Shown piece after piece: positions 3,245 to 57,668 of a stretch of DNA of 64,000 nucleotides. The notes beneath the pieces are model-generated. The model did no database searches. It was not told the DNA's origin and saw nothing but the letters and a program-made list of their open reading frames with translations. The stretch lies in NCBI GenBank assembly GCA_043808365.1, contig JAZDEZ010000008.1:919-64918 (forward strand), in the 5' to 3' direction. Within the stretch, counting starts at the first letter, position 1; each line of letters opens with the position of its first letter. The position numbers were made by a program, and so were the translations under genes. The stretch comes from Patescibacteria group bacterium. Its GTDB lineage: Bacteria; Patescibacteriota; Patescibacteriia; UBA10025; JAHIVO01.

Positions 3245-3249
3245 AAATC

Positions 3250-3839: not shown

Positions 3840-3943
3840 GGAAAGAACGCTTGTATACTACCGGTATACTACGCCCCGATACTGCAGCCGTAATATTAAT
3901 TAAACACTTTACTATTCTATCAGTAACCCAGCGCCAAGGCAAT

Positions 3944-3980
3944 AAAAAAGAGCTCTCAGTCGTGTAAAGACTAAGAGCTC
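3944..3980 (-). terminator. Rho-independent terminator after the 164-aa gene
   Basis: 12-bp stem GAGCTCTCAGTC / GACTAAGAGCTC (one mismatch), followed on the minus strand by T6. Confidence 0.7.
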
Positions 3981-4000
3981 GGTCGTTTGATGTCGTCGCG

Positions 4001-4495
4001 CTAACTCGCCACGCGTTTATAGAGCCAGAAAGGCAAATGCTGTAAGATCCATTCCCTCCGCTGCCAATCCTTCCGTGAACGAGTACGCGGTTGAGTAGAA
4101 TTAGAACAGAACCATTCAGCTTCGGTGGACTGATCGATTTCCGGACAGACGTGAATGGAGATCCGTTTCCCTGATTCCTCAACTACCTTTTCAAGATCTC
4201 TCACGCAACGCCAGATGTGTGGTTTAGCGGCTACTACCCACAGTTCGGTGAGTCCCCTAAACAACGCCCATCGAACAGCACTTCTGGCTATCCGGAGAGA
4301 TGGCGGCGGATGGCCGACCTCCGCGCTAATGTACTCAAACTCAATTCCCCGGCCACGCAGTAGAACATCGTACTGAGTGAACACGGGTGCGTCGAGCTCT
4401 TTCGCTTTTTGGGTTGCGATATCAGCAATACGCTGATTGGAAGATATACTCCCGGGTACACCAAACGCGAACGCTACAATTCCTGCTTTACTCAA
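4001..4495 (-). CDS. Hypothetical protein (family not recognised)
   Basis: 164-aa ORF with its own terminator. The overlapping 186-aa ORF 3622-4182 runs through the tRNA and is rejected. Confidence 0.6.
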   Translation of the reverse strand: MSKAGIVAFAFGVPGSISSNQRIADIATQKAKELDAPVFTQYDVLLRGRGIEFEYISAEVGHPPPSLRIARSAVRWALFRGLTELWVVAAKPHIWRCVRDLEKVVEESGKRISIHVCPEIDQSTEAEWFCSNSTQPRTRSRKDWQRREWILQHLPFWLYKRVAS

Positions 4496-23071: not shown

Positions 23072-23079
23072 AGGAGTCG

Positions 23080-23173
23080 GTAATTAGTAATCTGTAACTT
23101 GTAATAATTGTTACTGATTACAGGTTACCTGCTTAAATCACTAATTACTATTTACGAATTACTAATTACTTAC
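23080..23173. repeat. Heptamer array: 4 GTAANNN units followed by inverted TTAC units (hairpin-forming)
   Basis: GTAA starts at 23080, 23087, 23094 and 23101. TTAC ends at 23114, 23121 and 23128, then at 23148, 23155, 23162 and 23169. Confidence 0.75.
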
Positions 23174-23195
23174 ATTGTACCCGAAACTCCACAAA

Positions 23196-23228
23196 ACAAA
23201 AAGCGCTCCGGTTAAGAAACGCTTTTTG
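23196..23228 (-). terminator. Candidate terminator after the major-pilin gene
   Basis: AAAAAGCG ... CGCTTTTT, a short stem with flanking A-run and T-run. Confidence 0.4.
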
Positions 23229-23273
23229 TTATGATATCTGTAATTTCTGAATACTAATAAACCAAACAAACAC

Positions 23274-25160: not shown

Positions 25161-25327
25161 GTGTGCTTTTGTTTAGGTAACCGCTAATCCTATTCTCACG
25201 AATTCCACTAATCCCTGATTTCCATTGCTGTTAATATGGTCGCGCACCCACAGAGAGGTGCGCTCGGGAGGATGTAACTAACCTACTAGTAGCTAACCGA
25301 CTAATTACTAACCTACTATCTTACTAT

Positions 25328-32698: not shown

Positions 32699-32785
32699 CC
32701 TTGTTCAATGTATAATTGATAATTTCTAATGCATAATTTGTTACTTTGATTATACATTTTGCCTTATAAATTCCCTCCTAATATC

Positions 32786-32835
32786 TAACAACTAATTACT
32801 AATTACCAACTACTAATTACTGATTACTAACTTAC
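32786..32835. repeat. Heptamer array (NNNTTAC), spacer between the giant gene and pilM
   Basis: TAATTAC TAATTAC CAACTAC TAATTAC TGATTAC, with (T/C)TAC ends at 32799, 32806, 32813, 32820 and 32827. It overlaps the stop codon of the giant gene. Confidence 0.7.
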
Positions 32836-35800: not shown

Positions 35801-38800
35801 GCCAACTATTATCATTATTGCTCCCAAAAACATATAAATAACTCAAGTCAACAGCCAGACTAACGTTTTTGTTGTTTGTGCCAGATTCTCCACCCGTATT
35901 TTCTATAAGGATGTTGCCGCCACCGCCAAAATTAGCGTCATAAGCGCCGGTCGCGGTCAAACGCTTCTGGATATATATATTACTGCCATTATTGCCTATG
36001 GTAAAGCCGCCAACATAGAGATAGTCGCCACTCGGGTCCAGGGCTATGTCAGTGGCCGTATCGCTTACGTTGTTATAGGTATAGCGCACTACTCCGTCTT
36101 CAGTATAAGTGGTAGCGGAAGAGTCATATCTATAGCCGAATCCGGTACCGCACGCGCTGTCGGTACAGAGCTCTCCGCTGTCTGCCCGGCGCTTCTCAAT
36201 GCGCCAGTTGGGATACCAGATGGATTCAATTTCTGTTTCGTCTTTGCCAACAATGTATAAGTACTGACCCGACTCATCCAGCACGGTTTCTGTTGCGACT
36301 GCCCGCGTTGGTTTATCTACCACGCCCCCGTTCCCGAAGCTGCAGCCGGTGTTGTTAAAATTTATTTCTCCCCAAACCACGTGCGGATTGCCCCACCGGT
36401 CAAAGCCGAAGACCGGGCTCCAGGACTTGACCGCCGAGGTCTGGGACACGTTGAAGTCATCAGTCGACGGCGCCCGTGTTTCGTCTCCCGTGTTCACTGG
36501 TGTTGATTTATTGGCAGTTACCCAGTTGGCACCGTTCCAAGCGGAATAATATATATCAGTAGCAGTATTGCCGCCCAATGGACTATAATCCCAGACCAGG
36601 TGCGGCCGGTCATCTTCATCAATAAATAAATCATGGGTCAAATGAACCTCCCGCGGCGCGATTACTAAATCAGGATCATCCACATCTTCAGAATTATTTA
36701 CTGAAATCCAGGCACTGCCGTTCCACTGGCGAAACATCAAGGTCGTGGGATCGCGCCACGCAATGCCAGGCCGGCCATCGCCGAAAAAGGCGACCTTGGG
36801 CACTTGCCCAAGAAAATCATCCGGTGCATTTCCAATGCCAATACCTTCGCAACCGGCGCAGTCGCTGGTGCTTCGACACGCCGTGCCGTTCGGAGTGCCG
36901 TCGCACGTTAAAACTCCCCAGTTCACCGAAGTATCTTTGCTGATGCACCTATTTTGTCCGCAAATAAACGGAGTACACTGACTATCTAAGATACATGATT
37001 TTGACGAATCATCAGTACATGACTGTTCGCAATCACCGTCATTAGCACAGCTAGTAGTAAAATTATTTGAACATACATTTGTTCCGGCTTTACCGCTGGC
37101 CGAAACCCAGGCAATGCCGTCCCACCAGCGGTAAAAAATATGTCCGGGACTCTCCATCCAGGTGATATGTGGAATCCCCTCGTCGCTCACCGCTACATCA
37201 ACCGAATACGCTGAACCAGCCGGCGTATTGCTGACATTCAGGTTATTCCCGTCGCCGGTGACAGTTTGCCACGTCGCGCCGTTATCCGCGCTTTTTTTAT
37301 AATAAATTTCCGAGCCATAATAATTTCCAAACCGGTAAGCCACATGCAGTCCGCCGCTGGGATCGCGCTTAAGAACGGGAATTTGGGCTACACCACCCTC
37401 CACTGGTACGGCGCTGGTCCAGCCGCTATTTTCCCAGCGGGAAAAATAAAGGCCATTACCGCCTTCCCAGCCCGCGCCGCCCTCCTGCCAGACCACGTAG
37501 GGATTGTCATTAGCGTCCAAAACCAGGGAAGGAAAACGGGAATCCCGGTCTGTTGTGCGGCTGACATTTAATCCGGTGGCGATGGGATCTATCGCTCCGG
37601 GCCGGTATTCCACGCCGCTGGCCGTCAGCCATTTGCCGGCTTTTAACTTTAGATAATAAATTTCATAATTGTTATCCGCCCGCTCGTAGTTCGACCAAAC
37701 AACATGCGGATCGCCGATTGAATCGATCACCATGTCCTTTTCCGCGCCCCGCCCCCAATCTTCATGCCCCGCGGCGCCGCTGATGGAAATATTAACCGGA
37801 TTAAGCCACAATGAATTACCGCTATAATCCGAGGCGGCCGCGCCCCACCCCCAGCCGAACACGCTGTACAGCTTCAAATCATTCGGGTTCACGTCCGGAT
37901 CGCCGAAAAACTGCTGTGAATCCACCTCCGTGCCGGTCAATCCGTACGGGCCGGTATTCCCCTGGCCGTCATCATAAGTGCCATTCAGCTTGAGCCAGCC
38001 CCAATCGGTAAATCCGAGGGCGGCACCCGAATCTTTCTGCGATAATAGCCTGGCCCAGCCCTCGATACCACGCGTCGTGCCGCTGAAATTGGCGGTGGTG
38101 TAGGCGCGGCATTCCTCGACGCCCAAATCTACGTCTTGGTCAGGACACGTATCACCCGGCGGATTTTTGCATGTTTCAAATATACAAGTGGCTGACGTCG
38201 GCTCATTGCACCGCGACAGATCTCCATTGACACAAAAGCTAGTCGATTTGTCAGAGCACCGGCCGTACTTTACATCAGAAGTATCTGAGCCGGTATAGCA
38301 AAAACCGTATAATGGGTCGCTATTTGGCGGTATATTTGTACTTATAACATCGCAATAATTCCCAGTTCCGCAATCAGCGTCAGTAGCACAGCCTTTCTGC
38401 ATGTTGTTTGTGCAGGTCTTGGCATTGAAGCTTATCCAGCCCAGGCCGGTTTTTTTCAGCTGATTCTTTAGACATTCATCGCCTACTCCAGTCGTGCACT
38501 CAGAATTTTCCGCGCAGTATTGGCTAGGGTTGTTCTTGCAGACATCGACTAAAGCGTGACTGGAAGCGCTCCAGGCGTATCCCTCCATCGGGTTGATGTC
38601 GCGCGACGGCTCGAACCAGGTGTTCACGCCCCAGTCGCCGGCGTAATTACAGCTGTAATCCGACTGGTTATAGCGGTTCAGGCAGTTCAATGAAATCCAG
38701 CCGACCTGGGATGACCAGGCCCAGCCGACCAAGTTATTCTTCACTAAAAATAACGTCGCTGGCGAGCCGAAAGCCGTTTCGCGGCACCGGCCGTCCGCTT

Positions 38801-41800
38801 TTTCCACACCGCCAGAACACTGGTCGGTGCCAGAAGAATTATCCGTACTGCTCCCGGTCCGCGCCTTAAATTTAAAGTCATATTTTCCGGCCGTGACCAG
38901 GTCAACAGTCTTACCGGCGGCGTCGCCCCAGGTAACTCGGTTATACCAATATTTATTGCCATCCCCTTCCGGCGGCGGCCCCCCTTTGCTGGCTGAATTG
39001 CAAATCTCAATGCCGTTTGCAGGCACTCCATTTATCTTATCAGCAGTCCAAACGCCGCCGTTGGCAGGATCAATACAAACATCTTCTGTATCATACTTTG
39101 GCAAACTGCAGTTATGGTCAATTGAGCCAGTCACAGGATTGGCATAATGCCACCACAGCGGTGAGCCGGTTGGGCTGTATTTGGTGACACAGAGCGCGTA
39201 TTCTGTATCAGCGGCTGGCGGAATTCCCTGGGGATTACTTGGGTCTTCAGGCCTAATGATAATATTAATTGAGGTTTCGCTGATCTGCCGGACCAGCTTA
39301 GGTGCGATTGGAGTGGCGGCGTATGTGTAGTGGCATTGCGGGGTAGGCGGCAACCAACTAGTCGCATCCCCATCCCCGTTCTTGGTCTGGCCTTGATAGC
39401 AATATTTCGTATTTGGCGTAAGGGGGGAATGGGTTATGGAATTGGTTGTCGACCGTGCGGAATTCCACCCGGTGCCATTCTCCCGGAACCACAGCCCGGC
39501 CAAGCCCGAAGTCGGATTACCCAATAAATTAGTAAACGCGTTACTGGTAATGGTCAGTTGCTGTGTCTGCACATTCTGAAAGCTGATCGAAGATACGTTT
39601 TCATTTGAGGTATAGGCGTAGGCAGTTGCCGGCTGGCCCCATCTCGCGGTCGCGTCGCCCGCGCGAACCGTGGCTGAATATTGAGTATTGACGCCTAAAC
39701 CAGTATGAAGGTAATTCCTTATCGTGTCAGCCAAATAGCACGTGGGGGGCAGAAACGGAGTGGGCGAATAACAAGTACTGCCATTGTTAGAAGTTTTTAC
39801 TTCATATCCGTTAGTCGCATTGACAGGTGCGCCCCCGACTGGCGCGTTCCACAACCAGCTAAGTTGCGCAACCGTCTGGTCAGCATGATTAGGAACCGGG
39901 AATGTTACCGCGCAGGGGGGTAAAGTCATACTGCTGCCTGCGATACTTGGCCGCCAGCTGCCGGGATTTTCCAAGCCATCAGGATTAAATGCGCGCAGGT
40001 GGTAGGAATATGTCGTATGATCGGGGTCGCAGGTCAATAATTTGTCCTCCACTAAATAATCATTAGTGTAACTCTGCGCCGGCACGGGCGAAACAGTCGT
40101 CCAGTCGCAACCAGTGGTGCCATTGCATTTGCGCTGCCACTCATAAGTTACATTGGTCGGGTTAAATAATGTGTTCAAATTAAACTGGCAATAATAAGAA
40201 TTGACACCGCTGTAATTGCACGATAACGACTCGAGAGACGGATTATTCGGTCTGGTATAGACCATAGCGCAGGCGCCTGACTTCATGTAGCAGGTCCAGC
40301 TGGTCGGAGTGATATCGACGAAATTCCTGGCCTGCACCCTGACGTAATAGCCAGTGCTAGGTAATAAAATACTACCGATGCCCGTATATCTGCAGTATTC
40401 AGTGGATGAGCCGATGTTATAGCAGGGCAGGCTGGCGCTGCCAGCCACTATCCAGCCGGACTGATGGGCAAAAGCGGTAAAACCACTGTTAGTGCTAACC
40501 TGGATTTGGTAATTTGTGCCAGCGGGATTAAGTCTTGTCGTGGTGTTATTATTCTGCCATTCCACATAAAAAGTCCGGTTAGTTATATTAGCGGCCGGTA
40601 TAGATACTGTCCCGGGCGGCGCGGCCAGCGTGTACGCCCGGCTGCCGCTGCAGGCGCCGCCGTAGCAGGTCCAATTTGTATATATGTTATTGCTGTTTTT
40701 CGCCCGGACGCGGATATAATAGCCGGTATTGATTGCTAAACTCTGGGCGCCGGTATATTCGCAGGTGCCGCTAGGGCCCTGGCTGCAGATCAGCGGGCCG
40801 CTCGTACCGGAGGCCAATTCGGCACTGATGATCGGACTTGAAAAATCACTATTAATAGAAACGGTAATGCCGTACGTAGTGGGATTAGGATTTGACTGCG
40901 GATTTTTATTGTCCCACTGGATATGAAAACCAGCGGTGCCAGCAGCTACATTCACGCTTTTATCGTTAACGCTGACAGTACCCGGCTGGCCGGCCATGGT
41001 GCAAACTAAGCCAGTCGCCGCTGACCAGCCGTCGTCTGGGCTGGGACAGGGCGGAATATTTTCAGGGCAACCCTCGCCATAAACTCCATTGCCGTTTTTT
41101 GTCCGGGCGCGCAATGTATAGCAGGTGTTCGGCGATAAATTGATGATAGTATTGCCGGTTAGCCCCCCCCAATTGGGAGTAGTGCCCGCGCTGTAACCGT
41201 ACCACGCTTCGCCTGCCTGAAAGCTTCCGGTGCTCAGGTTATAGTATTGGCTATTGGCCGTGTTCTGCAGGGCGTACGGAGTAGCGGGATGATTAACATG
41301 AGTAGGACTTTTAGCATAACCGGCGTTATCCATTGTTACATACAGTTTTGTGGCGTCAGTCAGATTTGGCGTTACAATCGGTGTTTTCGAGTTCCGGGCG
41401 CGCGTGCAAATTATAGAAGTCGCCGACGGCGCGACCACGTAATTATCGTTCGTATCACCTTCATCGTCGCCGTTCTGGCTGTAAAGGCCGGCGTCAAAGC
41501 AAAGATTCGGAGACAGAGTCACCGCCTGTGGAAGCAAACCTATAATCGGCCAGGCCGTCGCCAAGGCGCTATCCCATTCTGCCTTGGTCATGCAAGCTGG
41601 GGTATCGCTGCCAATGTCTGATACTTGCCTGACCGGCGCCAGAGCAGGTCCTCGAAACACGGCGCCTTCGGGGCCAACTGCTTTATCGGATGAATAAAAA
41701 TAACCCGGCAAACCCGCGACAGCAAACCACTCGCCCGAAGAAAACCTGGAATAAAAACCCAGGCAATATTCGGTAGTAGCGGATGGATTGCTGGCCGGGA

Positions 41801-44291
41801 CAGTGACTGTCCCTCCGGCATTATACTGAATATTGTAATAATGTAGGGAAGACAGCGCTGGCGGCGCGCTCGTGACTGGCGCGGCCAGGGTGTAGCGGTA
41901 GGCCGGCGTACTGGCGCGATAACTGGCGTCGGAAAAACTGCAACCGATATGCGTCTGACATTGGAGGTTGTCCAGCGTGCCGTCGGACATTTTCAGCTTC
42001 ACGACTTTATTGGCATTCACGGCTTCATCGGTGACGACATACAGGTAGCCGATTCCATCCGCACCCGGCTCCAGGGTAACTCCCACGCCGGTATGAAAAT
42101 CCGCTGCACTGCCCAGATATACGCCATTGGTGCCAAACGCGGTGCCGCATTGGGCGGCCGTGCATAATGCTCCAGTGTCAAGGCGGCGCTTTTCCACCCG
42201 CAGGTGGCCGGTTCCGTCGTCACCGACTAAGTAAAAGTACAAGCCGTCCACCGCCATAGCGTAGGGCGTTCCAGACCCTCCGTCGTACAAAGTATATGAA
42301 GACGCACCATTCGTTAAAAGCCTACCAACCGTCCACACGTTTGGATTCGCATGTGTCGCCGCCGTTTTACCAGCCCAATAAATATTACTACTACTGTCAA
42401 GCTTGAGATCAGCAAAATTACTCATATTAGGGTAGGTATTGGAAAATATTGATGTTCCGTTTGCTGTTCTGTCCTTTTTAATTAACATATTATTAGTATC
42501 GCTCCTGACATATCCGGAATATAAATAAGTATTGTCAACTTCAATGGCGTGATTGGTTATAAAAATTAAGCTGCCGAAGAATGAAGATAAATATCCGTCG
42601 CCGTCAAATGCGGTATCAAAAAGACCGTTATCCTGCCTGACCTTCCAGATTATCCTATAGGAACTGTTATTGAAATTGTCATAGCAATAACCCACGGTGT
42701 ATATATTCGTGGCATCCATCGCCAAATCCGTAATTACTCCACCTTTATTAGAACCGCTACAAACAGCCGGGTCGTGAGTCTTATAGCCGTCGCTGTCAAA
42801 AGTAATATCATATTCTCCAGTCGTGGCCGAGCGCTTCTCCAACCTGTAACCTCCGTCTCCTCCATAATAAACCCTGTCGCCGCTGACGCCGGCCGTATAG
42901 CCGGTCATTCCCCACGCGACATATCCGGGCGTGCCGGCACTCGAGCCAAAAGTGGTGTCATAAGCGCCATTTGCGGCCGAGCGCTTCTCCCTATACCACC
43001 CCGTGGGATAAATGTAATTCGCGCCGTAAATAATATCGCGCATACCCTCGTGCGTAGCATCGCTGATAGTATTCAGCCAGCCGTCGCCGTCAAAACTGAG
43101 CCACTGCACGGTGACAATGCGGTAATAATGCTTGGTATTGATGCCTTGATTTTGATGCATAATCTGGCAGGTGCCGCCAGTACCTCCTTTGGAAATTCCT
43201 GTACACTGTTTAAGAATGTTAATGTCCGTTGCGCACATCTCCCAGGTATCATTATCTCCTGTGAGCAAAAAGCATGTGTCAGTCCAACTACCAGTACCAG
43301 TAGTGGAAGTCTGTACCAGCCAGCCGTCCTCGGCAGTGGTCTGGTCGCTGAACTGTAAATATAGTGCCTGCTGGATACCTTCCGGGGGGTTCGGAGTAAC
43401 ATTAGGCGCGATGATGGTGAAATTAGTAGGCTCCGGCAAGTCGATCGTGGGATCAATAACTACAGGATATTTTGCCTGATCCAGCCAGGCTTGCCCCGCT
43501 TTACTGATGACCTTGCTGATTATGTAATCGTCGCCGTCCCGGGTTATCTCGTACCCCAAGCCGTAATTAACCTTGTTTTCGTCATCCTGCTCGTACATGT
43601 GCGGCCTGGGCATGCGCCAGGTTATCCGCTTGGTTTTCTGGTCGTGGAAGGTGATTGAGCCGTCTGCCTGCTCTTTGTAATATACCCCTTCCAGCTTCAT
43701 CTGTTGGCTGAATTTTGCTTGTCCGGTTTTTTTATTCAAAATAATTTTCTCGGCCAAAGCGTCATTAGTGACAGTGTAATCCACGTCCACTCCGTCGTAC
43801 ACGCCGGCGTAAGAAACCGTACTGCCTTTGGCGCTGCTTTTCTTTGACGCTGAATCAATGAAGGACAGGGCAATGCCGCGACCGCCGGCCACCTCGAATT
43901 TGACCGCCCCTTCTTGGCCGGCTTCTGATTTGAAATGCGTTTTATGCACGTTGGCGGTGTTTTCGTATTTAAAATCGCCCGTTGAATTGACCACGGTCGT
44001 GTCGATCGGCTGGTACTTGCCCGCCGCGTCCTGGTACTCCGCGTAGGTATCGTGGTAATCGCCGGTGATGGCGCCGTCCGGCCGGACCTGCTCGTTGGTC
44101 AGGCTGCGGCCGGAAGTGAGCACGTCGATATCCGCTACCGTTTCCGGGTCTACCGGTCTCGCGGGCTGGGCTTGCGGTGTCCCGAACGGCTTAAGGCCTG
44201 TATGAATAACCAGCGTCAGCCCAGCGACCAGCACCGCGGCGGCGGCGAGGATGAAGCAGACTGTTAAGATGTATTTAGTGGATTTGGGCAT
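32832..44291 (-). CDS. Giant surface protein (about 3819 aa): beta-propeller arrays, BNR/Asp-box propeller, Cys-knot modules, C-terminal DNRLRE-like modules
   Basis: Uninterrupted 11.5-kb ORF. The likely start is ATG 44291 (MPKSTKYILTVCFILAAAAVLVAGLTLV, a signal anchor). Contains many W(R/H)IEKR..G.L...FG.DG blades, an Asp-box SADNGATW, blades of the type PH(V/I)VW ... W.GS.W, CxnCxxxDCxnC knots, and three L(R/Q)F....(I/V)PAGAEI..A.L modules. Confidence 0.9.
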   Translation of the reverse strand: MPKSTKYILTVCFILAAAAVLVAGLTLVIHTGLKPFGTPQAQPARPVDPETVADIDVLTSGRSLTNEQVRPDGAITGDYHDTYAEYQDAAGKYQPIDTTVVNSTGDFKYENTANVHKTHFKSEAGQEGAVKFEVAGGRGIALSFIDSASKKSSAKGSTVSYAGVYDGVDVDYTVTNDALAEKIILNKKTGQAKFSQQMKLEGVYYKEQADGSITFHDQKTKRITWRMPRPHMYEQDDENKVNYGLGYEITRDGDDYIISKVISKAGQAWLDQAKYPVVIDPTIDLPEPTNFTIIAPNVTPNPPEGIQQALYLQFSDQTTAEDGWLVQTSTTGTGSWTDTCFLLTGDNDTWEMCATDINILKQCTGISKGGTGGTCQIMHQNQGINTKHYYRIVTVQWLSFDGDGWLNTISDATHEGMRDIIYGANYIYPTGWYREKRSAANGAYDTTFGSSAGTPGYVAWGMTGYTAGVSGDRVYYGGDGGYRLEKRSATTGEYDITFDSDGYKTHDPAVCSGSNKGGVITDLAMDATNIYTVGYCYDNFNNSSYRIIWKVRQDNGLFDTAFDGDGYLSSFFGSLIFITNHAIEVDNTYLYSGYVRSDTNNMLIKKDRTANGTSIFSNTYPNMSNFADLKLDSSSNIYWAGKTAATHANPNVWTVGRLLTNGASSYTLYDGGSGTPYAMAVDGLYFYLVGDDGTGHLRVEKRRLDTGALCTAAQCGTAFGTNGVYLGSAADFHTGVGVTLEPGADGIGYLYVVTDEAVNANKVVKLKMSDGTLDNLQCQTHIGCSFSDASYRASTPAYRYTLAAPVTSAPPALSSLHYYNIQYNAGGTVTVPASNPSATTEYCLGFYSRFSSGEWFAVAGLPGYFYSSDKAVGPEGAVFRGPALAPVRQVSDIGSDTPACMTKAEWDSALATAWPIIGLLPQAVTLSPNLCFDAGLYSQNGDDEGDTNDNYVVAPSATSIICTRARNSKTPIVTPNLTDATKLYVTMDNAGYAKSPTHVNHPATPYALQNTANSQYYNLSTGSFQAGEAWYGYSAGTTPNWGGLTGNTIINLSPNTCYTLRARTKNGNGVYGEGCPENIPPCPSPDDGWSAATGLVCTMAGQPGTVSVNDKSVNVAAGTAGFHIQWDNKNPQSNPNPTTYGITVSINSDFSSPIISAELASGTSGPLICSQGPSGTCEYTGAQSLAINTGYYIRVRAKNSNNIYTNWTCYGGACSGSRAYTLAAPPGTVSIPAANITNRTFYVEWQNNNTTTRLNPAGTNYQIQVSTNSGFTAFAHQSGWIVAGSASLPCYNIGSSTEYCRYTGIGSILLPSTGYYVRVQARNFVDITPTSWTCYMKSGACAMVYTRPNNPSLESLSCNYSGVNSYYCQFNLNTLFNPTNVTYEWQRKCNGTTGCDWTTVSPVPAQSYTNDYLVEDKLLTCDPDHTTYSYHLRAFNPDGLENPGSWRPSIAGSSMTLPPCAVTFPVPNHADQTVAQLSWLWNAPVGGAPVNATNGYEVKTSNNGSTCYSPTPFLPPTCYLADTIRNYLHTGLGVNTQYSATVRAGDATARWGQPATAYAYTSNENVSSISFQNVQTQQLTITSNAFTNLLGNPTSGLAGLWFRENGTGWNSARSTTNSITHSPLTPNTKYCYQGQTKNGDGDATSWLPPTPQCHYTYAATPIAPKLVRQISETSINIIIRPEDPSNPQGIPPAADTEYALCVTKYSPTGSPLWWHYANPVTGSIDHNCSLPKYDTEDVCIDPANGGVWTADKINGVPANGIEICNSASKGGPPPEGDGNKYWYNRVTWGDAAGKTVDLVTAGKYDFKFKARTGSSTDNSSGTDQCSGGVEKADGRCRETAFGSPATLFLVKNNLVGWAWSSQVGWISLNCLNRYNQSDYSCNYAGDWGVNTWFEPSRDINPMEGYAWSASSHALVDVCKNNPSQYCAENSECTTGVGDECLKNQLKKTGLGWISFNAKTCTNNMQKGCATDADCGTGNYCDVISTNIPPNSDPLYGFCYTGSDTSDVKYGRCSDKSTSFCVNGDLSRCNEPTSATCIFETCKNPPGDTCPDQDVDLGVEECRAYTTANFSGTTRGIEGWARLLSQKDSGAALGFTDWGWLKLNGTYDDGQGNTGPYGLTGTEVDSQQFFGDPDVNPNDLKLYSVFGWGWGAAASDYSGNSLWLNPVNISISGAAGHEDWGRGAEKDMVIDSIGDPHVVWSNYERADNNYEIYYLKLKAGKWLTASGVEYRPGAIDPIATGLNVSRTTDRDSRFPSLVLDANDNPYVVWQEGGAGWEGGNGLYFSRWENSGWTSAVPVEGGVAQIPVLKRDPSGGLHVAYRFGNYYGSEIYYKKSADNGATWQTVTGDGNNLNVSNTPAGSAYSVDVAVSDEGIPHITWMESPGHIFYRWWDGIAWVSASGKAGTNVCSNNFTTSCANDGDCEQSCTDDSSKSCILDSQCTPFICGQNRCISKDTSVNWGVLTCDGTPNGTACRSTSDCAGCEGIGIGNAPDDFLGQVPKVAFFGDGRPGIAWRDPTTLMFRQWNGSAWISVNNSEDVDDPDLVIAPREVHLTHDLFIDEDDRPHLVWDYSPLGGNTATDIYYSAWNGANWVTANKSTPVNTGDETRAPSTDDFNVSQTSAVKSWSPVFGFDRWGNPHVVWGEINFNNTGCSFGNGGVVDKPTRAVATETVLDESGQYLYIVGKDETEIESIWYPNWRIEKRRADSGELCTDSACGTGFGYRYDSSATTYTEDGVVRYTYNNVSDTATDIALDPSGDYLYVGGFTIGNNGSNIYIQKRLTATGAYDANFGGGGNILIENTGGESGTNNKNVSLAVDLSYLYVFGSNNDNSWHIEKRYSDDGSLVTSFGAGGVVNSNGGYTAQWITIDAEFMYLVGGNAGGRWRIEKRRLSNGSLVSGFDTDGIIDGSGSYESERAFQAILHGNYLYVVGNTKDLSNNEDFLVAKYDRVTGQPVDTFDGDVNGNGFIQIVDFPDSRSKKAFTIAADDNFIYFAGWVGYSLGNSRWRYERLNHNGVRQPDDMTSGGWQNGIIFEDGNNGHGAVDGRIDGIVVDNTYMYAVGSHNFGPTTWRIEKRYKDSGVLVTPQHSNCVDSKYPSCMFNYWKGELGANVYYCAASDVEYSKWMPGVAQSGLGWVEFMPAGALLGIPWVQTMFADIHASQGIALAPPPRGTGDYTSTYIIESGDAISGIPGYYGGTTTGLPTSQLPTQPGFSPLIQNQPSIQTLGAELLAKLDVDGLVNKTNGDKNRHGTVVVESTDTELSASLGNPILNNKVYYFHGTPGQTFTIGSDMYFMKGSASAIPATKGNGVIVVDGNLEINANVYYDKRCSNNNNQVCHQNGDCGTGNTCDDPLISNLIELPSAAIIVRGNIYINSLAGQVSAVVAAIDNPATATLTEGIISTGRKAPSSLSVSAGNDDTEVVSGSYVNAPVAASAKFGKDAGNVVSRDYLRFALASIPAGAEIKSAYLKLQSDGSSNGDFNARVYLLDYDNATDASIDFITTPNSTLYNANTSNSVNFPIEGNWTAGTWYQTPDLKAIVQRFVNRDNYTQVNYIGLSIREGDAEVGDLRGFRTFESGSAPQLVIEYAPRRSTSNAANGSIVTDTTMETALNDMTFGWNGTKPQRAYLQFPVNVPANAEILKAQVHTTMCNAGTAAFQIRQGVLQNYPSVIDSNPYAFPISLDVSELAQDVAVNALGSGQVALNDISGIITAFISRSDYLPGVASHSEFDLRLRRGSDSVEGVVGPGENRCIQKTATSLSIDYQIPLSVSGLFVAGTGYNFDRKYTKNLAPSERILYDGRVVANTPPGLSDFITALPIYHRVTP

Positions 44292-44369
44292 AGGAAATTT
44301 AAAGGGAGGACAAGGGTAACATGGGATGCAAGGGGGAGCAGGGGACTTCAAGGGTAGATACTGGTGCTA
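44292..44369. repeat. Array of about 9-nt NNNCAAGGG units (left arm of four-helix-bundle cassette 1)
   Basis: TTTAAAGGG AGGACAAGGG TAACATGGG ATGCAAGGG GGAGCAGGG GACTTCAAGGG. It contains the IR half GGGGAGCAGGGGACTTCAAGGG (44333-44354). Confidence 0.75.
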
Positions 44370-44789
44370 TTAAGGCTTTTTAATTTTGCTGGCTCCGCTA
44401 TTAAAATTATTCATACGTTTTTTAGTTTCTAATGATTTTACTAACTTTGAGAATAAATAATCAGTTTTACCGCATAGGGCGTCTAATTTTCTAAATTCCA
44501 CCTCGGTAATCAATTGGTCTTCGAAGCAATCTTCTATATCACCCTGCAATTCGGAAAGTGACGGCTGGCAAATATTTTTCAGGGCGTTGATGTACTGGCC
44601 AAGGGTCTGGCGGTACCCTTCCTGAATATTCTGCTTTACCGAGCGGGCGGCGCTGTTCATCTGGCTGACACGCCTGATTTCAGATTTTGGAAAACGCCTC
44701 GACATTTCATAGACCGCGCTTCTTAACTGGCTGGCGTTCCGCCAAACAATTAGATCTTTATACCCCTGCTTGTATTTTTTATCCAACAT
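44370..44789 (-). CDS. Four-helix-bundle protein (23S rRNA intervening-sequence protein / Avd family)
   Basis: 139 aa. YKDLIVWRNASQLRSAVYEMSRRFPKSEIRRVSQMNSAARSVKQNIQEGY matches the F.DL.VWQ.A..L...IY.....FPK.E.. L..Q..RAA.S...NIAEG pattern of TIGR02436/PF05635. Confidence 0.8.
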   Translation of the reverse strand: MLDKKYKQGYKDLIVWRNASQLRSAVYEMSRRFPKSEIRRVSQMNSAARSVKQNIQEGYRQTLGQYINALKNICQPSLSELQGDIEDCFEDQLITEVEFRKLDALCGKTDYLFSKLVKSLETKKRMNNFNSGASKIKKP

Positions 44790-44805
44790 ATTTCAATCGT
44801 GTAAT

Positions 44806-44925
44806 TATCCCCCTTGAAACCCCTGATTTCCCTTGGACCCCCCTAATCTCCCTTGAAATTACCCTGAATCTCCCCTTGCCTTCCCTTGAAACCCCCTGCT
44901 CCCCTGTGGAACCCCTGAATCTTTA
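44806..44925. repeat. Array of about 10-nt CCCTTGA/CCCCTGA units (right arm of cassette 1, inverted relative to the left arm)
   Basis: AACCCCTGA TTTCCCTTGG ACCCCCCTAA TCTCCCTTGA AATTACCCTGA ATCTCCCCTTG CCTTCCCTTGA AACCCCCTGC... IR half CCCTTGAAACCCCCTGCTCCCC (44883-44904) matches 20/22 with the reverse complement of 44333-44354. Confidence 0.75.
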
Positions 44926-47173: not shown

Positions 47174-47271
47174 GGATTACTTGTTACCCGTTACTAATTA
47201 CGAATTACTATTTACTAATTACTTATTACCTTTTATCTATTATTTATTATCTATTACTTATTACCTTCTAC
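47174..47271. repeat. Heptamer array, 14 NNNTTAC units in unbroken register
   Basis: TTAC/TTAT/CTAC ends at 47180, 47187 ... 47271 (every 7 nt). It fills the spacer between the stop of the 1677-aa gene and the start of the 743-aa gene. Confidence 0.85.
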
Positions 47272-47275
47272 ATGC

Positions 47276-50200
47276 TTACAGCCCCCGGCATTTCAGAGTG
47301 GCGGGTACATTGTCTAGCGCCCCATTTGCCAGGTTGCGCTTCTCAATGCGCCAGCCGGCAAACCCGTCCAAATTGCCGAAGGTATATATGTAGGTATCGT
47401 CAATCGCGATATCGCGGCCGTACTGGACGTCATTTGGGTTGGCATTACTGTAAATCGCGATGGAACCGGAACCGCTATCGCCGAACCCGATTCCACAATT
47501 TCCTGCTGTGCACAGCGCACCCGTATCCAAGCGGCGTTTCTCCATGTACCAACCGTCGTCATTCATGGACCGGTAGCCGATCAGATACATGTAATCATCG
47601 TCAATGGCGATTGAATTCACCCCATCAGCAATATTCGTCACAACCGTGATTGCTCCGCTGCCTGAATCGCCGAAGTTACCGGCCGAGCAAGCACCGCCGG
47701 TGCAGAGCGAGCCATTGTCCTTGTCATATTTCCTGATATGCCAATTGGCATTGTCCATGCCGGCTACGTAAAGATAATCAGAGTCAACGGAAATACCGCC
47801 GACATAGGTCGTGTTATCATCCACGGTAGCGGTGGTCTCTGTAATAACCCCGCTGCTGCCAAAACCGCTGTCTAAGCTGCCATCCGTGAGCAAGCGCTTT
47901 TCAATGCGCCATTGGAGATTTTCATCAAACCCAAACACGTACATGGAGGCATCGTCAATATCAATATCGTGCGCTGAACTTGTCAGGGCGCTGCTTTCGA
48001 CATACCCATCACCGTCAAAAGCAGTGCCGCAAACAGCTGCCGTGCACAAATCTCCCGTGCCCAGCAACCGTTTTTCCGTCCGCCAAGTATTTGAACTGCT
48101 CTGGCCGGTTACGTACATATATTGGCTGTCGATGGCAATTGCTCTGGCCGCTTTGCCGCCCGCCGCGTTTAATGCCCATGCCTGACTGCCGTTTGTTTTA
48201 GCACGTTTCTCGATATGCCATACATCAAGCGGTGTCTGGCCGACTGTATAAAGATAAGTATCATCAATTGCCACATCCCAGCCGGCATTGCTGCCGCCAT
48301 TAGCCGCCGCTCCGGTAATGATGCCATCGCCGTCAAAACCCGTATCGAGAGTCCCGCTCCAAATATCGCGCTTCTCGGCGCGCCAGCGAGTATTTATATC
48401 CGTATCTGAATTTCCAGCCAGATACACACTGCTTTCATCAACCGCGATGCCCCAGCCAAGCGTGCTCCCGTTCATGCCGTCCTCCCGGATATACCCGCTC
48501 GTCCCAAAAGAAACAGCGCGGCTGGTGAGATCAATGCCCTTCACATACTGGCCGTCTTGGCAGCTCTGTCCGGTATTCCTGTCATCGTCCGCCGCGCCTG
48601 CCCAGGCGTTATTAGCGACGACTAAATCACCAACCACTGTCAACTTCGCGCCAAAAGCCGCCGAGCCATCAGCGGAAAAACTGCCCGGCTGGGAATCGAC
48701 GCTCCACTGGCTAGCGTCGCGGAGCTGGACAGAACCGGCAAGATCAGCGGCGCCGCGCCCACTGCCGACATAGTACTGTTTCAAGGAGTACCCCTCGTAC
48801 CAGGCCAACCCGTAGGATGTGATCCACAAACTATTGCCGTCAAAAATTGCCGCCCGCGTATCGTACTTAGTGCCGAGCGTGACGCTCTCGACAATCTGGT
48901 CAGTGGCCGCCGCGATTCTGGTCAAGTAGCGGTTATTTTCCGAACTGGTTTCTTCCGACGTGTCGAGCGCGCTGCTGCAGCCGGGATCCGGCTTGCCGCT
49001 GCACCCGGGATTGCCGATGCCTCCGTCAAAGTCGCACAAGCTGTTGCCGTCGTTATCCAGGTGATCGGAGCATTGCCCCACAGCCGGTGAAATGTCATGG
49101 TACCCGACATGAGTGGCCCAGACGTAGGTGCCGTCAAAAGTCAGCGTGGTAACGTTGGCGGTGTCCCCGTCCTTAAAAATCGAGTACTTGGCCGCAACCA
49201 CGGCATTGCAGTCATTGCCGCCGCAATCGGCAGGAGTGTTGCAAACCAAGGTGGTATTATTGCTGCAAACCCCGGCATGGGTGCTGTCCCCGCCGTAGGG
49301 GTCTATCTTATAAATGCTGTTTCCGTCCGCGTCCGCGAAGTACGAACCGACCCAGAGGTAGGTGCCGTCGTACATGATAGACCTGATCGGCCGCGCACCG
49401 CCGCCAGGCGACTGGGTCGACATCTCTGCAATGCTCAGCCTGGATAAGAACGCGCCATCCTGCCTGACGTTTACCACCTTCCTGCTATTGTTGAGCGAAG
49501 CCCAGATACTGCCGCTCGCCTGCGCCAGCAGATGCGGCCGCTCGTTTACTCCGATGTACCCACCGAGCGTATACCGCGTGTAGCTGGTACAGACATGCGA
49601 TCCGGGACTACAGCTCGATAAATCGATCCGCAAGAGATAATTACTATCTTGTTCTAAGGATGCCCAGAGGTACGCGCCGTCGTAAGAAAGGTCGTAGACA
49701 TACTTTTCTCCAAGGCCAGCCAACTCGTACTCATCTACCGTTAAGCCGGTTTTTGGATCGACCTGTCGAAACCACATTTTAAAATCGTGCGCGTGGGGCA
49801 GCCACAAGCTCGCCCCGTCAAAAGTGATGTACCCGACATCGAAGCCCATGTCATAGTCGCTGATTTTTTTACCGTCGGAGGCGCGGTACTTACTGAGGTA
49901 AGTCGAAGCTGAAGCGGTTCCCCAGAGGTACGTGCCGTCAAATATGAAATCATCATAACCCGCGCCGAGAATTGGAACAGTAGTGTCGACGTACGGCGCC
50001 TCCATGGTTCGCTTCCCCACGCTGCCGATCCGTCCGAAACCCTGCCAGATGATGGGATTGCTGGGATCGCGCGGGTCATAGGTGAAATCATACAGGGTGC
50101 GGTCCCAGGGACCCTCCCCGTAGTGGTTTTGCTCCACGCCGTCAGTGTCAAACTTCTCCAGAAAACCTTTGCTGCCGACCCAGACCGATGGCCCGCCCGG

Positions 50201-52309: not shown

Positions 52310-52320
52310 CTACTTTCCGC

Positions 52321-52453
52321 GGATTACTTATTACCCGTTACTGATTACTAATTACGAATTACTTATTATTTATTATTTATTACTTATTACCTATTATTTA
52401 TTACTTATTACATTGTTCATGGTTCTAAGTTCAAAGTTCATGGTTCATAGTTC
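52321..52453. repeat. Heptamer array, 19 units: 13 NNNTTA(C/T) then 6 NNNGTTC in the same register
   Basis: Units end at 52327, 52334 ... 52411 (TTAC/TTAT) and at 52418, 52425 ... 52453 (GTTC) with no phase break. Confidence 0.85.
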
Positions 52454-55667: not shown

Positions 55668-56231
55668 ATGTCACCAATTGTCTGGATCATCATCATCGCC
55701 ATCGGCGCCATCGTCCTATGGTTCATTGCGGTCTACAACGGCCTGATCCGCCTGCGCAACCAAACTAAGGAAGCCTGGGCTGACATCGACGTCCAGCTCA
55801 AGCGCCGCTACGACCTGATCCCGAACCTGGTCGAAACGGTCAAGGGCTATGCCAAGCACGAACGCGAACTTTTTGAAAAAGTAACCCTAGCCAGGACAGC
55901 GGCCATGGGCGCCACGGGCGTGGCTGCCAAGGGCCAGGCGGAAAATATGCTGGCCGGCACGCTGAAAAGCTTGTTTGCCGTGGCCGAAGCCTATCCTGAC
56001 CTGAAAGCCAACCAGAACTTCTTGAAGCTCCAGGACGAGCTGTCTGACACGGAAAACAAGATCCAGGCCGCCCGCCGGTTTTATAACGGCAACGTGCGCG
56101 ACTTCAACACGAAGATTCAGGTGTTCCCGAACAACATGATTGCCGGCACCCTCGGTTTCAAGGCCTTTGAATTCTTCGAGCTCGGCGCCGGTGAAGCGGC
56201 GGCTAAAGAGCCGGTGAAGGTGAGCTTCTAG
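55668..56231 (+). CDS. lemA: LemA family protein
   Basis: 187 aa. N-terminal TM, then YNGLIRLRNQTKEAWADIDVQLKRRYDLIPNLVETVKGYAKHE ... ARRFYN, the LemA signature. Confidence 0.9.
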   Translation: MSPIVWIIIIAIGAIVLWFIAVYNGLIRLRNQTKEAWADIDVQLKRRYDLIPNLVETVKGYAKHERELFEKVTLARTAAMGATGVAAKGQAENMLAGTLKSLFAVAEAYPDLKANQNFLKLQDELSDTENKIQAARRFYNGNVRDFNTKIQVFPNNMIAGTLGFKAFEFFELGAGEAAAKEPVKVSF

Positions 56232-56237
56232 TTAGAC

Positions 56238-56265
56238 TAAGAACTTTGAACCGAAAACACTGAAC
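56238..56265. repeat. NNNGAAC heptamers (left arm of four-helix-bundle cassette 2)
   Basis: TAAGAAC TTTGAAC CGAAAAC ACTGAAC (ends at 56244, 56251, 56258 and 56265), followed by the hairpin CTGAAC-tggaatatc-GTTCAG. Confidence 0.7.
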
Positions 56266-56296
56266 TGGAATATCGTTCAGATTATATTTGATACTT

Positions 56297-56653
56297 ATGT
56301 TATTCAGATTCAGACAATTTCCTGTTTACAAGGATTCCAGAAAATTCCGAAATGACATATACGCTTTAACGAAAAAATTTCCTAAAGAAGAGCTATTCAG
56401 TTTAACTTCGCAAATCAGACGCGCGACAAACTCCATCTTATTGAACATTGCTGAAGGATCAAACCGACTGTCCGATAATGACTTTGGACGCTTTTTAAAT
56501 ACAGCATTGACTTCACTTGAAGAAGCAGTCGCCTGTATGGATATTGCGCTCGATGAAAAATATATTAGCCTACAAGATCACGAAAAACACCTTGCATTAG
56601 CAGAAAACCTTGGCAAGCAATTACTCGGTTTCAGCAAAAAACTTCGAAAGTAA
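56297..56653 (+). CDS. Four-helix-bundle protein (23S rRNA intervening-sequence protein / Avd family)
   Basis: FPVYKDSRKFRNDIYALTKKFPKEELFSLTSQIRRATNSILLNIAEGSNR is a close match to the TIGR02436 pattern. The ATG at 56297 is preferred over the TTG at 56288. Confidence 0.85.
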   Translation: MLFRFRQFPVYKDSRKFRNDIYALTKKFPKEELFSLTSQIRRATNSILLNIAEGSNRLSDNDFGRFLNTALTSLEEAVACMDIALDEKYISLQDHEKHLALAENLGKQLLGFSKKLRK

Positions 56654-56663
56654 GCTAAATTTA

Positions 56664-56753
56664 TAGGTTCCAAGTTCCTAGACAAAGTTGATTGTTCAAG
56701 GTTCTAAGTTCCTAGTCCCAAGTTCATTGTTCCCAGTTCATAGTCCTGAGTTC
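56664..56753. repeat. 13 NNNGTTC heptamers (right arm of cassette 2, inverted relative to the left arm)
   Basis: TAGGTTC CAAGTTC CTAGAC AAAGTTG ATTGTTC AAGGTTC TAAGTTC CTAGTCC CAAGTTC ATTGTTC CCAGTTC ATAGTCC TGAGTTC. The track ORF 56688-57668 wrongly translates this array as an HtpX N-terminal extension. Confidence 0.8.
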
Positions 56754-56765
56754 AACGTAAATCCC

Positions 56766-57668
56766 ATGCCCACCATCTACACGCATATCAATGCCAACAA
56801 ACGCCGGCCATGGATCCTGATGGGAATATGCGCAATATTCCTATTTGGCATCGGATTTTTTCTCGATCAGGCGTACGGCCATGGATCCTGGGGCTGGACC
56901 ATAGTCGCCCTGATATACGCTGTAATCAGCGCTTTAATCGGCTATTTCAAGGGTGATAAGATTGCCCTGTGGACATCCGGGGCCGTCCCAGTGACCAAGG
57001 AACAAAACGCCTATGTCGTCCGCATGGCCGAGAATCTGGCCATCACCACCGGCTTGCCGGCGCCGAAAGTCTACATCATCCCTGATGAGGACATTAACGC
57101 GTTTGCGACCGGACGCGACCCGCAACACGCCTCCATCGCCGTCACCCAGGGGGCGATTGACAAGCTGGCCAACGAGGAGCTGGAAGGCGTCATGGCGCAT
57201 GAAATTTCGCATATCGGAAATTATGATATCCGCTACATGACTCTGGTGATAGTTTTGGTTGGGACGATTATCGTTTTATCTGACATGTTCTGGCGGGTTC
57301 GCTTCGGACGTTCATTTGGCCGAAGCAGTGGCCGGAGCGGCGGCGGCGCCGCCATCATGGTGCTTGGACTCGTTCTCCTGATACTCGCTCCGTTGTTCGC
57401 TGAATTGATAAAACTGGCCGTCTCCCGCAAACGCGAATACCTGGCGGACGCTTCCGGCGCATTACTCACGCGGTACCCGGAAGGGCTGGCCCGCGCTCTG
57501 GAAAAAATACGCGACCAGGGAGCGCGGATTGAGCGGGCGACGAAATCTACGGCGCACCTGTACATCGCCAACCCAATGGGCTCGGGATTCTCAAAATTTT
57601 TTTCCACCCATCCGCCGATTGACGACCGGATCAGCCGACTGCGCCAGATGGGAAATATAACGCAATAA
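56766..57668 (+). CDS. htpX: Membrane zinc metalloprotease HtpX (M48 family)
   Basis: HEISHIGNYD (HExxH), 4 TM segments, and C-terminal STHPPIDDRI. The start is reset to ATG 56766 (MPTIYTHINANKRR). Confidence 0.9.
   Translation: MPTIYTHINANKRRPWILMGICAIFLFGIGFFLDQAYGHGSWGWTIVALIYAVISALIGYFKGDKIALWTSGAVPVTKEQNAYVVRMAENLAITTGLPAPKVYIIPDEDINAFATGRDPQHASIAVTQGAIDKLANEELEGVMAHEISHIGNYDIRYMTLVIVLVGTIIVLSDMFWRVRFGRSFGRSSGRSGGGAAIMVLGLVLLILAPLFAELIKLAVSRKREYLADASGALLTRYPEGLARALEKIRDQGARIERATKSTAHLYIANPMGSGFSKFFSTHPPIDDRISRLRQMGNITQ

Follow-up and report, generated by a model that had tools for sequence, protein, structure and literature searches.

In a 64-kb stretch of DNA of a Patescibacteria bacterium (Candidate Phyla Radiation, CPR), here called the window, a cassette of ~525 bp (56232-56755) was found between the genes lemA and htpX. 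It consists of a gene of the intervening-sequence protein (IVP) family, predicted to encode a four-helix bundle of 118 aa, enclosed by two arrays of heptamers that form imperfect inverted repeats of each other. Inverted arms of 7-8-nt units accompany the IVP gene nearly always in the CPR bacteria, the cyanobacteria and the one alphaproteobacterium that were sampled, and comparison of related loci shows arm, open reading frame (ORF) and arm dispersing, by all appearances, as one unit. The window element is very probably an IVP cassette of the type known as intervening sequences (IVSs) of rRNA, and it would represent a non-rRNA, array-armed, CPR form of this known but unexplained kind.

Protein and arms of the lemA-htpX cassette

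The 118-aa protein scored above the curated cutoffs of both PF05635 (23S_rRNA_IVP; E 3.8e-31, 107.9 bits, cutoff 33.8) and TIGR02436 (E 6.5e-30, 103.6 bits, cutoff 24), and a Patescibacteria metagenome-assembled genome encodes an identical (100%) protein, P0001, with the annotation 'four helix bundle protein'. Its AlphaFold2 monomer model, with a predicted local distance difference test score of 96.5, displays four long helices and superposes on XCC0516 (2GSC) with a template modelling (TM) score of 0.92 and a root-mean-square deviation of 0.9. The TM score was 0.81 both with BT_0352 (2RLD) and with Avd (4DWL), a protein of diversity-generating retroelements (DGRs) with which the sequence identity is ~10%. 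The family matches and the 2GSC-like fold thus bear out the assignment of the ORF to four-helix-bundle proteins, which an earlier note had made from the DNA letters. The crystal entries 2GSC and 2RLD contain five chains each, and the IVP family has been described as a pentameric toroid (PMC4990558). The model makes the protein an Avd-like four-helix bundle, pentameric in its solved relatives. It is basic (pI 9.5), and its score with NF033474, the equivalog model of Avd, was 25.9 bits, far under the cutoff of 80.

Comparison with the orthologue at locus L161 (the loci compared are labelled from L001 onward) gave a nonsynonymous divergence (pN) of 0.084 and a synonymous divergence (pS) of 0.75, values that point to strong purifying selection on the protein. 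The pS value, which is saturated, stands against 0.49 for the adjacent lemA (56297-56653 compared with L161 1423-1779), and at the window and L161 loci the GC content at third codon positions (GC3) of the IVP gene is 0.35-0.46 against 0.69-0.78 in the neighbours. The high pS and low GC could stem from allele replacement, from faster mutation of the loop or from selection favouring a low GC content.

The left arm directly adjoins the stop codon of lemA (TAG, 56229-56231) and is built of the units TTAGACT AAGAACT TTGAACC GAAAACA CTGAACT. Four NNNGAAC heptamers had been counted here in the earlier note; three are exact and in a single phase (GAAC at 56241, 56248 and 56262), but the fourth is degenerate (AAAC at 56255). 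Behind the ORF the 13 units counted at that time are present, but exact in-phase GTTC occurs in nine only, the other four reading GACA, GTTG, GTCC and GTCC. An internal 34-nt higher-order duplication of the right arm (Tandem Repeats Finder period 34, 2 copies, 85% match) accounts for its one 1-nt phase slip, between 56674 and 56694. On the sense strand the left arm is purine-rich and the right arm pyrimidine-rich. The density of GTTC reaches 9 per 100 nt in the right arm against a window mean of 0.33, and its sole other peak (6 per 100 nt) lies at 52411. Among short periods, 7 alone is enriched in the window, with 108 sliding windows at 75% self-match and none at the other periods among 4-13. 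The arrays differ from CRISPRs, which have 23-47-nt repeats and unique spacers, as their units are 7 nt long, stand head to tail and have no spacers between them.

The arms form the imperfect inverted repeat that had been described. Recomputation gave 25 matches in 32 nt (78%) between 56235-56266 and 56686-56717, where 24/32 had been reported, and a second inverted alignment joined 56231-56266 to 56721-56756 (36 nt, 75%). In the minimum free energy fold of 56222-56768 the left arm is base-paired to the terminal part of the right arm, so that complementary termini of 32-36 nt enclose the ORF as they do in an IVS; the five units of the left arm correspond to the tandem heptamers of variable number just upstream of an IVS ORF, and arm unit number also differs among orthologues of the cassette. 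The duplex energy of arm against arm was compared with 500 dinucleotide shuffles of both arms. For the wide arms it was -32.7 against -25.4 +/- 3.9 kcal/mol, with 27 of 500 shuffles as good, and for the tight arms -28.8 against -21.0 +/- 3.3 kcal/mol, with 11 of 500 as good; same-sense arms, used as a control, were at background. The complementarity, which the earlier note had proposed to set against shuffled controls, is real but modest: it beats the shuffles, but the margin is small. Folding of the whole cassette as RNA was uninformative (z 0.05), as the ORF dominates the score.

The inverted layout around relatives of the gene

Metagenomes were scanned with 33 aligned relatives, which yielded 80 loci; 70 of these were distinct and were scored. 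Inspected by eye, nearly all 80 show A-rich tandem repeats upstream of the ORF and the reverse complement of these downstream, as in CTGAAGAAC / GTTCTTCAG, ATTGACA / TGTCAAT and GATGAAC / GTTCATC. The best period of the flanks was 7 or 8 in every strong case, and the period threshold was reached on each side of the gene in 45 of the 70 loci (64%), whereas random positions within these loci reached it in 3%. Smith-Waterman comparison of the upstream flank with the reverse-complemented downstream flank gave a median score of 33.5 (14.5 for the direct comparison, 14 for controls), and the inverted score exceeded the direct one in 63/70 loci. The arms had a median length of 5.1 units on both sides (interquartile range about 4-6), a count partly set by the detection floor of 3 units, and the sense strand of the 5' arm was purine-rich in 61/72 loci. 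CPR DNA sampled regardless of IVP contained 7 arrays in 640 kb. The IVP gene is co-directional with its upstream neighbour in 53/59 loci, with its downstream neighbour in 61/64 and with both in 41/48, and its GC content is below that of the host locus in 40 of 41.

The same arrangement was disclosed on plasmids of Nostoc, Calothrix, Anabaena, Picosynechococcus, Geminocystis, Stanieria and Azospirillum: inverted heptamer arrays (for instance AGTAGGG / CCCTACT, GGGAACA / TGTTCCC and GGACAGA / TCTGTCC) flank 11 of the 12 plasmid IVP genes. The plasmid genes stand in spacers such as cas10-cmr3 and cas6-cas4, and also between nrd genes. On the plasmid of the exception, Pseudanabaena galeata (L179), the arrays are direct and very long, with AAAAGCT repeated ~17 times upstream and AAAAGCC ~12 times downstream. 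Among the metagenomic loci, one clade with TTGACA arms appears, as assigned by eye, to lie between peptide-deformylase-like (C-terminal HETDHLDG) and formyltransferase-like genes (L100, L130, L152), and other members of this clade stand in front of pilin-like genes, again assigned by eye from the translated flanks.

The window holds a further cassette of this kind, cassette 1, whose protein matches PF05635 with 58.8 bits and TIGR02436 with 53.0 bits and is distantly related to the 118-aa protein (phmmer E 6e-7). Its arms gave a duplex energy of -85.7 against -70.3 +/- 5.4 kcal/mol, with none of 500 shuffles as good, and the 3' arm stops just before the ATG of a giant downstream ORF. The two cassettes share their layout and have unrelated repeats, CAAGGG/CCCTTG in one and GAAC/GTTC in the other, as the earlier note had observed, and the ~80 further loci agree.

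Arm sequence follows the lineage of the protein. Arm 6-mers are shared by 84% of IVP pairs at 70% identity or more, against ~25% of pairs below 60%. At 70-80% identity, 84% of the pairs lack homology in the neighbouring genes on either side, yet arm units are shared by 88% of these. As the arms thus keep to the protein lineage despite differing neighbour genes, arm, ORF and arm move together as one unit. Between L105 and L139 the nucleotide homology stops inside the arms. Picosynechococcus PCC 7003 carries the cassette between cas10 and cmr3 where PCC 7002 has 12 nt, the flanks being ~90% identical, and N. edaphicum and Calothrix NIES-4105 offer a similar pair of occupied and empty sites. No target-site duplication was visible in these two comparisons or at L103, at flank identities of only 85-97%; defined termini could not be made out at the boundaries examined, L105/L139 included, and the genes adjoining the cassettes include no transposase, integrase or reverse transcriptase. 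L103 contains two 97% identical IVP cassettes (114-610 and 2920-3430) 2.8 kb apart, in each of which the left arm is immediately preceded by an extended -10 promoter (TGGTATAAT); the copies differ in two 8-nt arm units and end with the first codons (MPK) of paralogous downstream genes.

Copying of the arm units from the local target was also considered, the empty site of PCC 7002 containing TAATC twice, like the right arm in PCC 7003. It was rejected as a general rule because related cassettes keep their units in unrelated contexts and because orthologues at the same lemA-htpX junction carry different units. A phage origin was likewise discarded, as tblastn against 50,697 phage records gave no match and IMG/VR contained no relative. 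From the two window cassettes the earlier note had argued for a structural rather than a sequence-specific requirement. The conserved unit length of 7 or 8 and the conserved inversion speak for it, but unit sequence tracks the protein lineage, and units travelling with the ORF fit co-inheritance or recognition by the protein as well as a requirement for structure.

The lemA-htpX junction and other arrays of the window

A survey of junctions returned 80 species-representative loci with HtpX. The earlier note had taken lemA and htpX for common direct neighbours, and lemA indeed stands immediately 5' of htpX in ~75 of the 80; the gap is 24 nt or less in 24 of 72 measurable junctions. Two junctions only (L001 and L036) contain an IVP gene, and these are unrelated copies, 36-39% identical to that of the window, and have inverted heptamer arms of their own, different from those described above. 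The window cassette has a GC content of 0.37 and GC3 of 0.35 against 0.55-0.57 and 0.66-0.78 in its neighbours. Because most junctions join lemA directly to htpX, IVP occurs in 2/80 and the composition is foreign, the cassette is regarded as an addition to an ancestral lemA-htpX pair. The insertion postulated in the earlier note is thereby supported, but it is not recent, since orthologues occupy the same junction at 85% (L161) and 75% identity (L163 and, in Kerfeldbacteria, L164-L169). LemA at the loci of the closest IVP relatives is 75-90% identical, lemA of the window is 75-94% identical to the htpX-preceding lemA of related loci, and the Kerfeldbacteria share the downstream ClpB. This copy of the cassette is old and was vertically inherited at the junction.

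The arms of the orthologues have diverged in units and in length. In L161 the left arm occupies the same place and reads CCAAGAAC TCTGAAC TAAGAAC TCCGAAC, and the right arm has ~5 units against 13 in the window. Both arms of L165 are made of NNNAGCY/RGCT units, with period 7 and mutual complementarity kept. ORF-less array hairpins occupy the lemA-htpX junction in the CPR loci L017 and L037; spacer repeats without the ORF, which had been named as a finding that would speak against an insertion, therefore do occur in part, but the cassette stands, because elsewhere the arms move with the ORF.

Other features of the junctions were recorded alongside. L010 (Magasanikbacteria) has no IVP gene and carries at 3961-4013, just before htpX, an array of ATTACT heptamers of the same family as the solo arrays of the window. 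L002, also without IVP, contains at 3866-3999 degenerate GTTC-like and AGCT-like units that resemble a decayed right arm. Hairpins were significant (z below -2) in 23 of the 33 junctions with gaps of 25-330 nt among the 72 measured, and many of these hairpins are GC-rich and terminator-like, though the pair is usually treated as an operon.

The coordinates of the features in the window are collected in Table 1. Relatives of HtpX begin MPTIYTHINANKR, which corresponds to the ATG at 56766, and their alignments start at residue 1-4. The TTG start at 56688 in the ORF list (326 aa) is an artefact of reading through the right arm, so that the 26-aa extension suspected in the earlier note is spurious; 10 nt separate the end of the right arm from the true ATG. 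The linker between left arm and IVP gene has no Shine-Dalgarno-like sequence and no promoter consensus, and the flanks of the cassette gave no match to a promoter or terminator consensus. An Rfam scan of the window returned three tRNAs only, with no rRNA and no other known RNA family, and reverse transcriptase is absent from the neighbours (LemA, M48, ClpB and proteins without a Pfam match).

Table 1 Positions of the lemA-htpX cassette, its host genes, cassette 1 and the GTTC solo array in the window.
Feature	Position	Strand	Basis
lemA, upstream host gene	55668..56231	+	PF04011 E 5e-62
Left (5') arm, five heptamer units	56232..56266	+	Inverted-repeat and phase analysis
AT-rich 30-nt linker, left arm to ATG	56267..56296	+	
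IVP gene, 118 aa ('four helix bundle protein' / 'S23 ribosomal protein')	56297..56653	+	PF05635, TIGR02436
Right (3') arm, 13 heptamer units of NNNGTTC type	56664..56755	+	
htpX-type M48 protease gene, downstream host gene	56766..57668	+	PF01435 E 2.6e-32
Cassette 1, IVP gene, 139 aa, pI 9.6	44370..44789	-	PF05635 E 7e-16
Cassette 1, 5' arm, ~11 G-rich units of 8-12 nt, NNCAAGGG / NNCAGGGG type	44793..44925	-	
Cassette 1, 3' arm, CCCTTG / CCCCTG units	44296..44366	-	
Solo array, six NNGTTCN heptamers, no ORF	52411..52453	+	

The solo array at 52411-52453 lies 4 kb from the cassette and is identical in ~20 of 21 bases to part of its right arm; the left arm of the cassette pairs with this array (z -3.7) better than with its own right arm. 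It directly adjoins one of two arrays of ~13 ATTACTT-type heptamers each (47175-47277 and 52320-52411), which read AAGTAAT on the sense (minus) strand. Each of the two is placed between the stop and the start of very large genes, the surrounding ORFs having 743, 1677 and 847 aa and no Pfam match. These arrays are one-armed and form no hairpin (z +0.8 to +1.0), and the genes downstream of them have a near-identical leader and N-terminus (CCGCGGAAAGTA[G/A]ATGAAGAGATTAAATATC). At 23072-23273 (sense strand minus) AGTAATT / AATTACT arrays form an ORF-less hairpin with a fold z of -5.45; it adjoins a terminator-like stem between a pilin-like gene (N_methyl motif) and a glycosyltransferase gene, within a type IV pilus cluster (PilM, PilB-like T2SSE, PilC-like T2SSF and a response regulator). 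Last, heptamer or near-heptamer arrays lie between minus-strand genes at 32775-32835 (ACTAATT) and 25274-25326 (GTAACTAACCTACTA), the former just downstream of the stop of a 3839-aa ORF (32832-44351).

Kinship, possible working and meaning

Intervening sequences with an S23p/IVP ORF are reported for Leptospira, Brucella and Xanthomonas as well as for Coxiella. The closest comparison is offered by the IVS of Coxiella burnetii, an insertion of 428 nt in helix 45 of 23S rRNA that contains the S23p ORF; 2-3 tandem GACAGAT heptamers, in strain-dependent number, precede its ATG, and RNase III cuts its 28-bp terminal stem at the first repeat (PMC4990558). The origin of IVSs and the role of S23p are unexplained, and an origin from mobile elements, or as remnants of transposition, has long been suggested (cited in PMC4990558). 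ORFs for IVP also occur in insertions of CPR 16S and 23S rRNA (PMC11270868) and inside cas operons (PMC3936711). The window cassette resembles the Coxiella IVS in the family of the protein encoded in the loop, the complementary termini, the tandem heptamers before the ATG, the sense ORF in a host transcript without a promoter of its own and the sporadic distribution. In contrast to rRNA IVSs, it stands between the protein genes lemA and htpX and not in an rRNA helix; its arrays are long and degenerate (5 and 13 units) and its stem is 75-78% complementary where that of Coxiella is near-perfect over 28 bp, and the selection acting on its IVP sets it apart from the decaying ORF of Coxiella.

By analogy with Coxiella, the cassette would be transcribed together with lemA and htpX. 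The arms would then pair in the transcript, in many possible registers because they consist of repeated units, and the imperfect stem closing the ORF in a loop would become a substrate of RNase III. The cut would free the IVP message and separate the messages of lemA and htpX, leaving the insertion nearly harmless. That the window feature is an IVS-type selfish cassette in an operon spacer and works in this way, stem and RNase III step included, is reasonably probable; for stem formation and the RNase III step, considered as a part by themselves, the case is nearly balanced and leans slightly to the negative.

Several observations weigh against this reading. The inversion is missing at 7 of the 70 metagenomic loci, and L179 (cas6-IVP-cas4 on the P. 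galeata plasmid) has direct arrays, the sole clear exception among the 12 plasmid genes; solo and one-armed arrays occur in the window itself. The stem of the window cassette is weak and interrupted, with 75-78% complementarity, z of -1.9 to -2.4 and helices of 3-6 bp, and RNase III would cut it poorly by comparison with the 28-bp stem of Coxiella. The arms are unequal (4-5 units against 13). Permutation of the right-arm units keeps the duplex energy, 276 of 500 permutations being as good, so that the complementarity resides in the units and not in their register, and no particular helix is conserved. A G.U excess was sought among the arm mismatches of 65 cassettes as a sign of a selected sense-strand RNA helix, and none was found; G.U (101) and A.C (91) are equally frequent (p 0.52) and thus carry no signature of such selection, and it may be on DNA that the complementarity is maintained. 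The 64-kb window shows no gene for RNase III.

The kinship with Avd opens another way of reading the arms. All five protomers of Avd bind an imperfect RNA stem-loop, flipped-out bases being lodged in the inter-protomer crevices, and in the DGR RNA sequences upstream of the template pair with sequences downstream of it (bioRxiv 10.1101/2023.10.23.563531). The IVP of the window shares with Avd the fold, a weak hidden Markov model match and, presumably, the basic pentameric barrel, and the RNA stem-loop of Avd is encoded beside its own gene; unlike DGRs, the window cassette has no reverse transcriptase, template repeat or variable repeat near it. The arms might accordingly be an array of binding sites for their own IVP pentamer, on an RNA stem or on DNA, with one unit or periodic mismatch per protomer, through which the pentamer would regulate its own synthesis or bring about cassette copying. 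This explanation, which is compatible with RNase III processing, is unlikely. The fixation of unit length at 7 or 8 across phyla while the sequence is free would suit it, as would the basic protein, the median of 5.1 units per arm beside the pentamers 2GSC and 2RLD, and the five-protomer grip of Avd on an imperfect stem-loop at a fold match of TM 0.81; yet the ~5-unit count is due in part to the 3-unit detection floor, and the Avd model scored 25.9 against its cutoff of 80. The tracking of protein lineage by unit sequence also agrees with it, but is equally predicted by plain co-inheritance. Orthologues at 75% identity moreover differ in their units (GAAC in the window and L163, AGCY in L165), which makes tight specificity improbable.

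Alternatively, the cassette could be a mobile element at the DNA level, its arrays serving a host or trans-acting enzyme either like the subterminal repeats of a transposon or as sites of recombination in hairpin or cruciform form, and any RNA stem being a by-product. Like miniature inverted-repeat transposable elements (MITEs), repetitive extragenic palindromic (REP) sequences and the bacterial interspersed mosaic elements (BIMEs) built of them, and integron attC cassettes, the IVP cassettes have inverted-repeat ends, lie between genes and have ORF-less derivatives, and, as with MITE, REP and attC, shape seems to count for more than sequence in their recognition. They differ in that each end consists of 7-8-nt units in tandem where a single terminal inverted repeat would be expected, in that arms stand on both sides of the ORF, unlike a single attC, and in that no target-site duplication, transposase or integrase was found. 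The equality of G.U and A.C mismatches suggests upkeep at the DNA level, for example by templated correction between inverted repeats. The arms accompany the ORF from place to place, the whole unit is present at occupied and missing at empty sites, the ORF-less hairpins (L017, L037 and 23072-23273) resemble non-autonomous derivatives, the IVP gene is lower in GC than its host in 40/41 loci, and the old proposal that IVSs are remnants of transposition points the same way (cited in PMC4990558). A DNA element is nonetheless distinctly unlikely: neither a target-site duplication nor defined termini could be made out at the boundaries examined, no transposase, integrase or reverse transcriptase adjoins the cassettes, the L103 pair resembles a segmental copy that includes the promoter and the first codons of the downstream gene, and the bias towards sense orientation fits an RNA-dependent lifestyle at least as well.

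The arrays also recall the short tandemly repeated repetitive (STRR) sequences of cyanobacteria, tandem repeats of 7 bp, of unexplained function, whose hairpins lie between co-transcribed genes, for example hupS and hupL (PMC2670836). Both consist of tandem 7-bp units in operon spacers and are capable of forming hairpins; STRR-like arrays, in inverted order, flank the cyanobacterial plasmid IVP genes that were examined, and ORF-less, STRR-like array hairpins occur in CPR too (L017, L037 and 23072-23273 of the window). Unlike STRRs, which are described only as repeats and from heterocystous cyanobacteria, the cassette has a CPR host, a gene between its arrays and GAAC/GTTC units. No paper linking STRRs to four-helix-bundle genes was found in the searchable literature. 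That the arrays are a generic, microsatellite-like intergenic feature arising by STRR-like slippage and flanking the ORF by chance is largely refuted and highly improbable: period 7 is the sole short period enriched, ORF-less arrays lie at 23131, 32775, 47175 and 52320 (with the GTTC unit among them) and L010 has its ATTACT array before htpX without an IVP gene, but CPR DNA yields 7 arrays in 640 kb where 64% of IVP genes have them on both sides (3% at random positions), the flanks are mutually inverted in 63/70 loci and the arms follow the ORF between contexts.

Taken together with the IVS reading, these likenesses allow a wider claim, tentative and somewhat unlikely as a whole. Inverted-arm IVP cassettes may constitute one mobile family spanning phyla, of which rRNA IVSs, IVP genes wedged in operons (cas operons included) and at least part of the STRRs would be manifestations or relics. 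The Avd-like pentamer would be the family's own factor, gripping the arm stem with one heptamer or periodic mismatch per protomer and so guiding how the cassette RNA is processed or copied, perhaps with the help of a reverse transcriptase acting in trans.

To our knowledge, the IVS protein family, the origin of rRNA IVSs and the heptamers of cyanobacterial STRRs have been without explanation since about 1990. Members of the IVS protein family are annotated 'four helix bundle protein' in thousands of genomes. For the window locus and its ~80 relatives, a vague 'hypothetical protein' becomes a defined cassette, and with it comes a testable hypothesis in which the arms would serve as binding sites of their own pentamer and the stem as a target of RNase III. 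Gene callers run downstream genes through the arm, the false 26-aa extension of HtpX being an example, and the reported 'association' of IVP with cas operons may reflect cassettes settling in operon spacers. The chief value lies in a general rule, that inverted arrays of 7-8-nt units almost always accompany the gene and disperse with it, and this anatomy links the intervening sequences of rRNA with the unexplained heptamer repeats of cyanobacteria.

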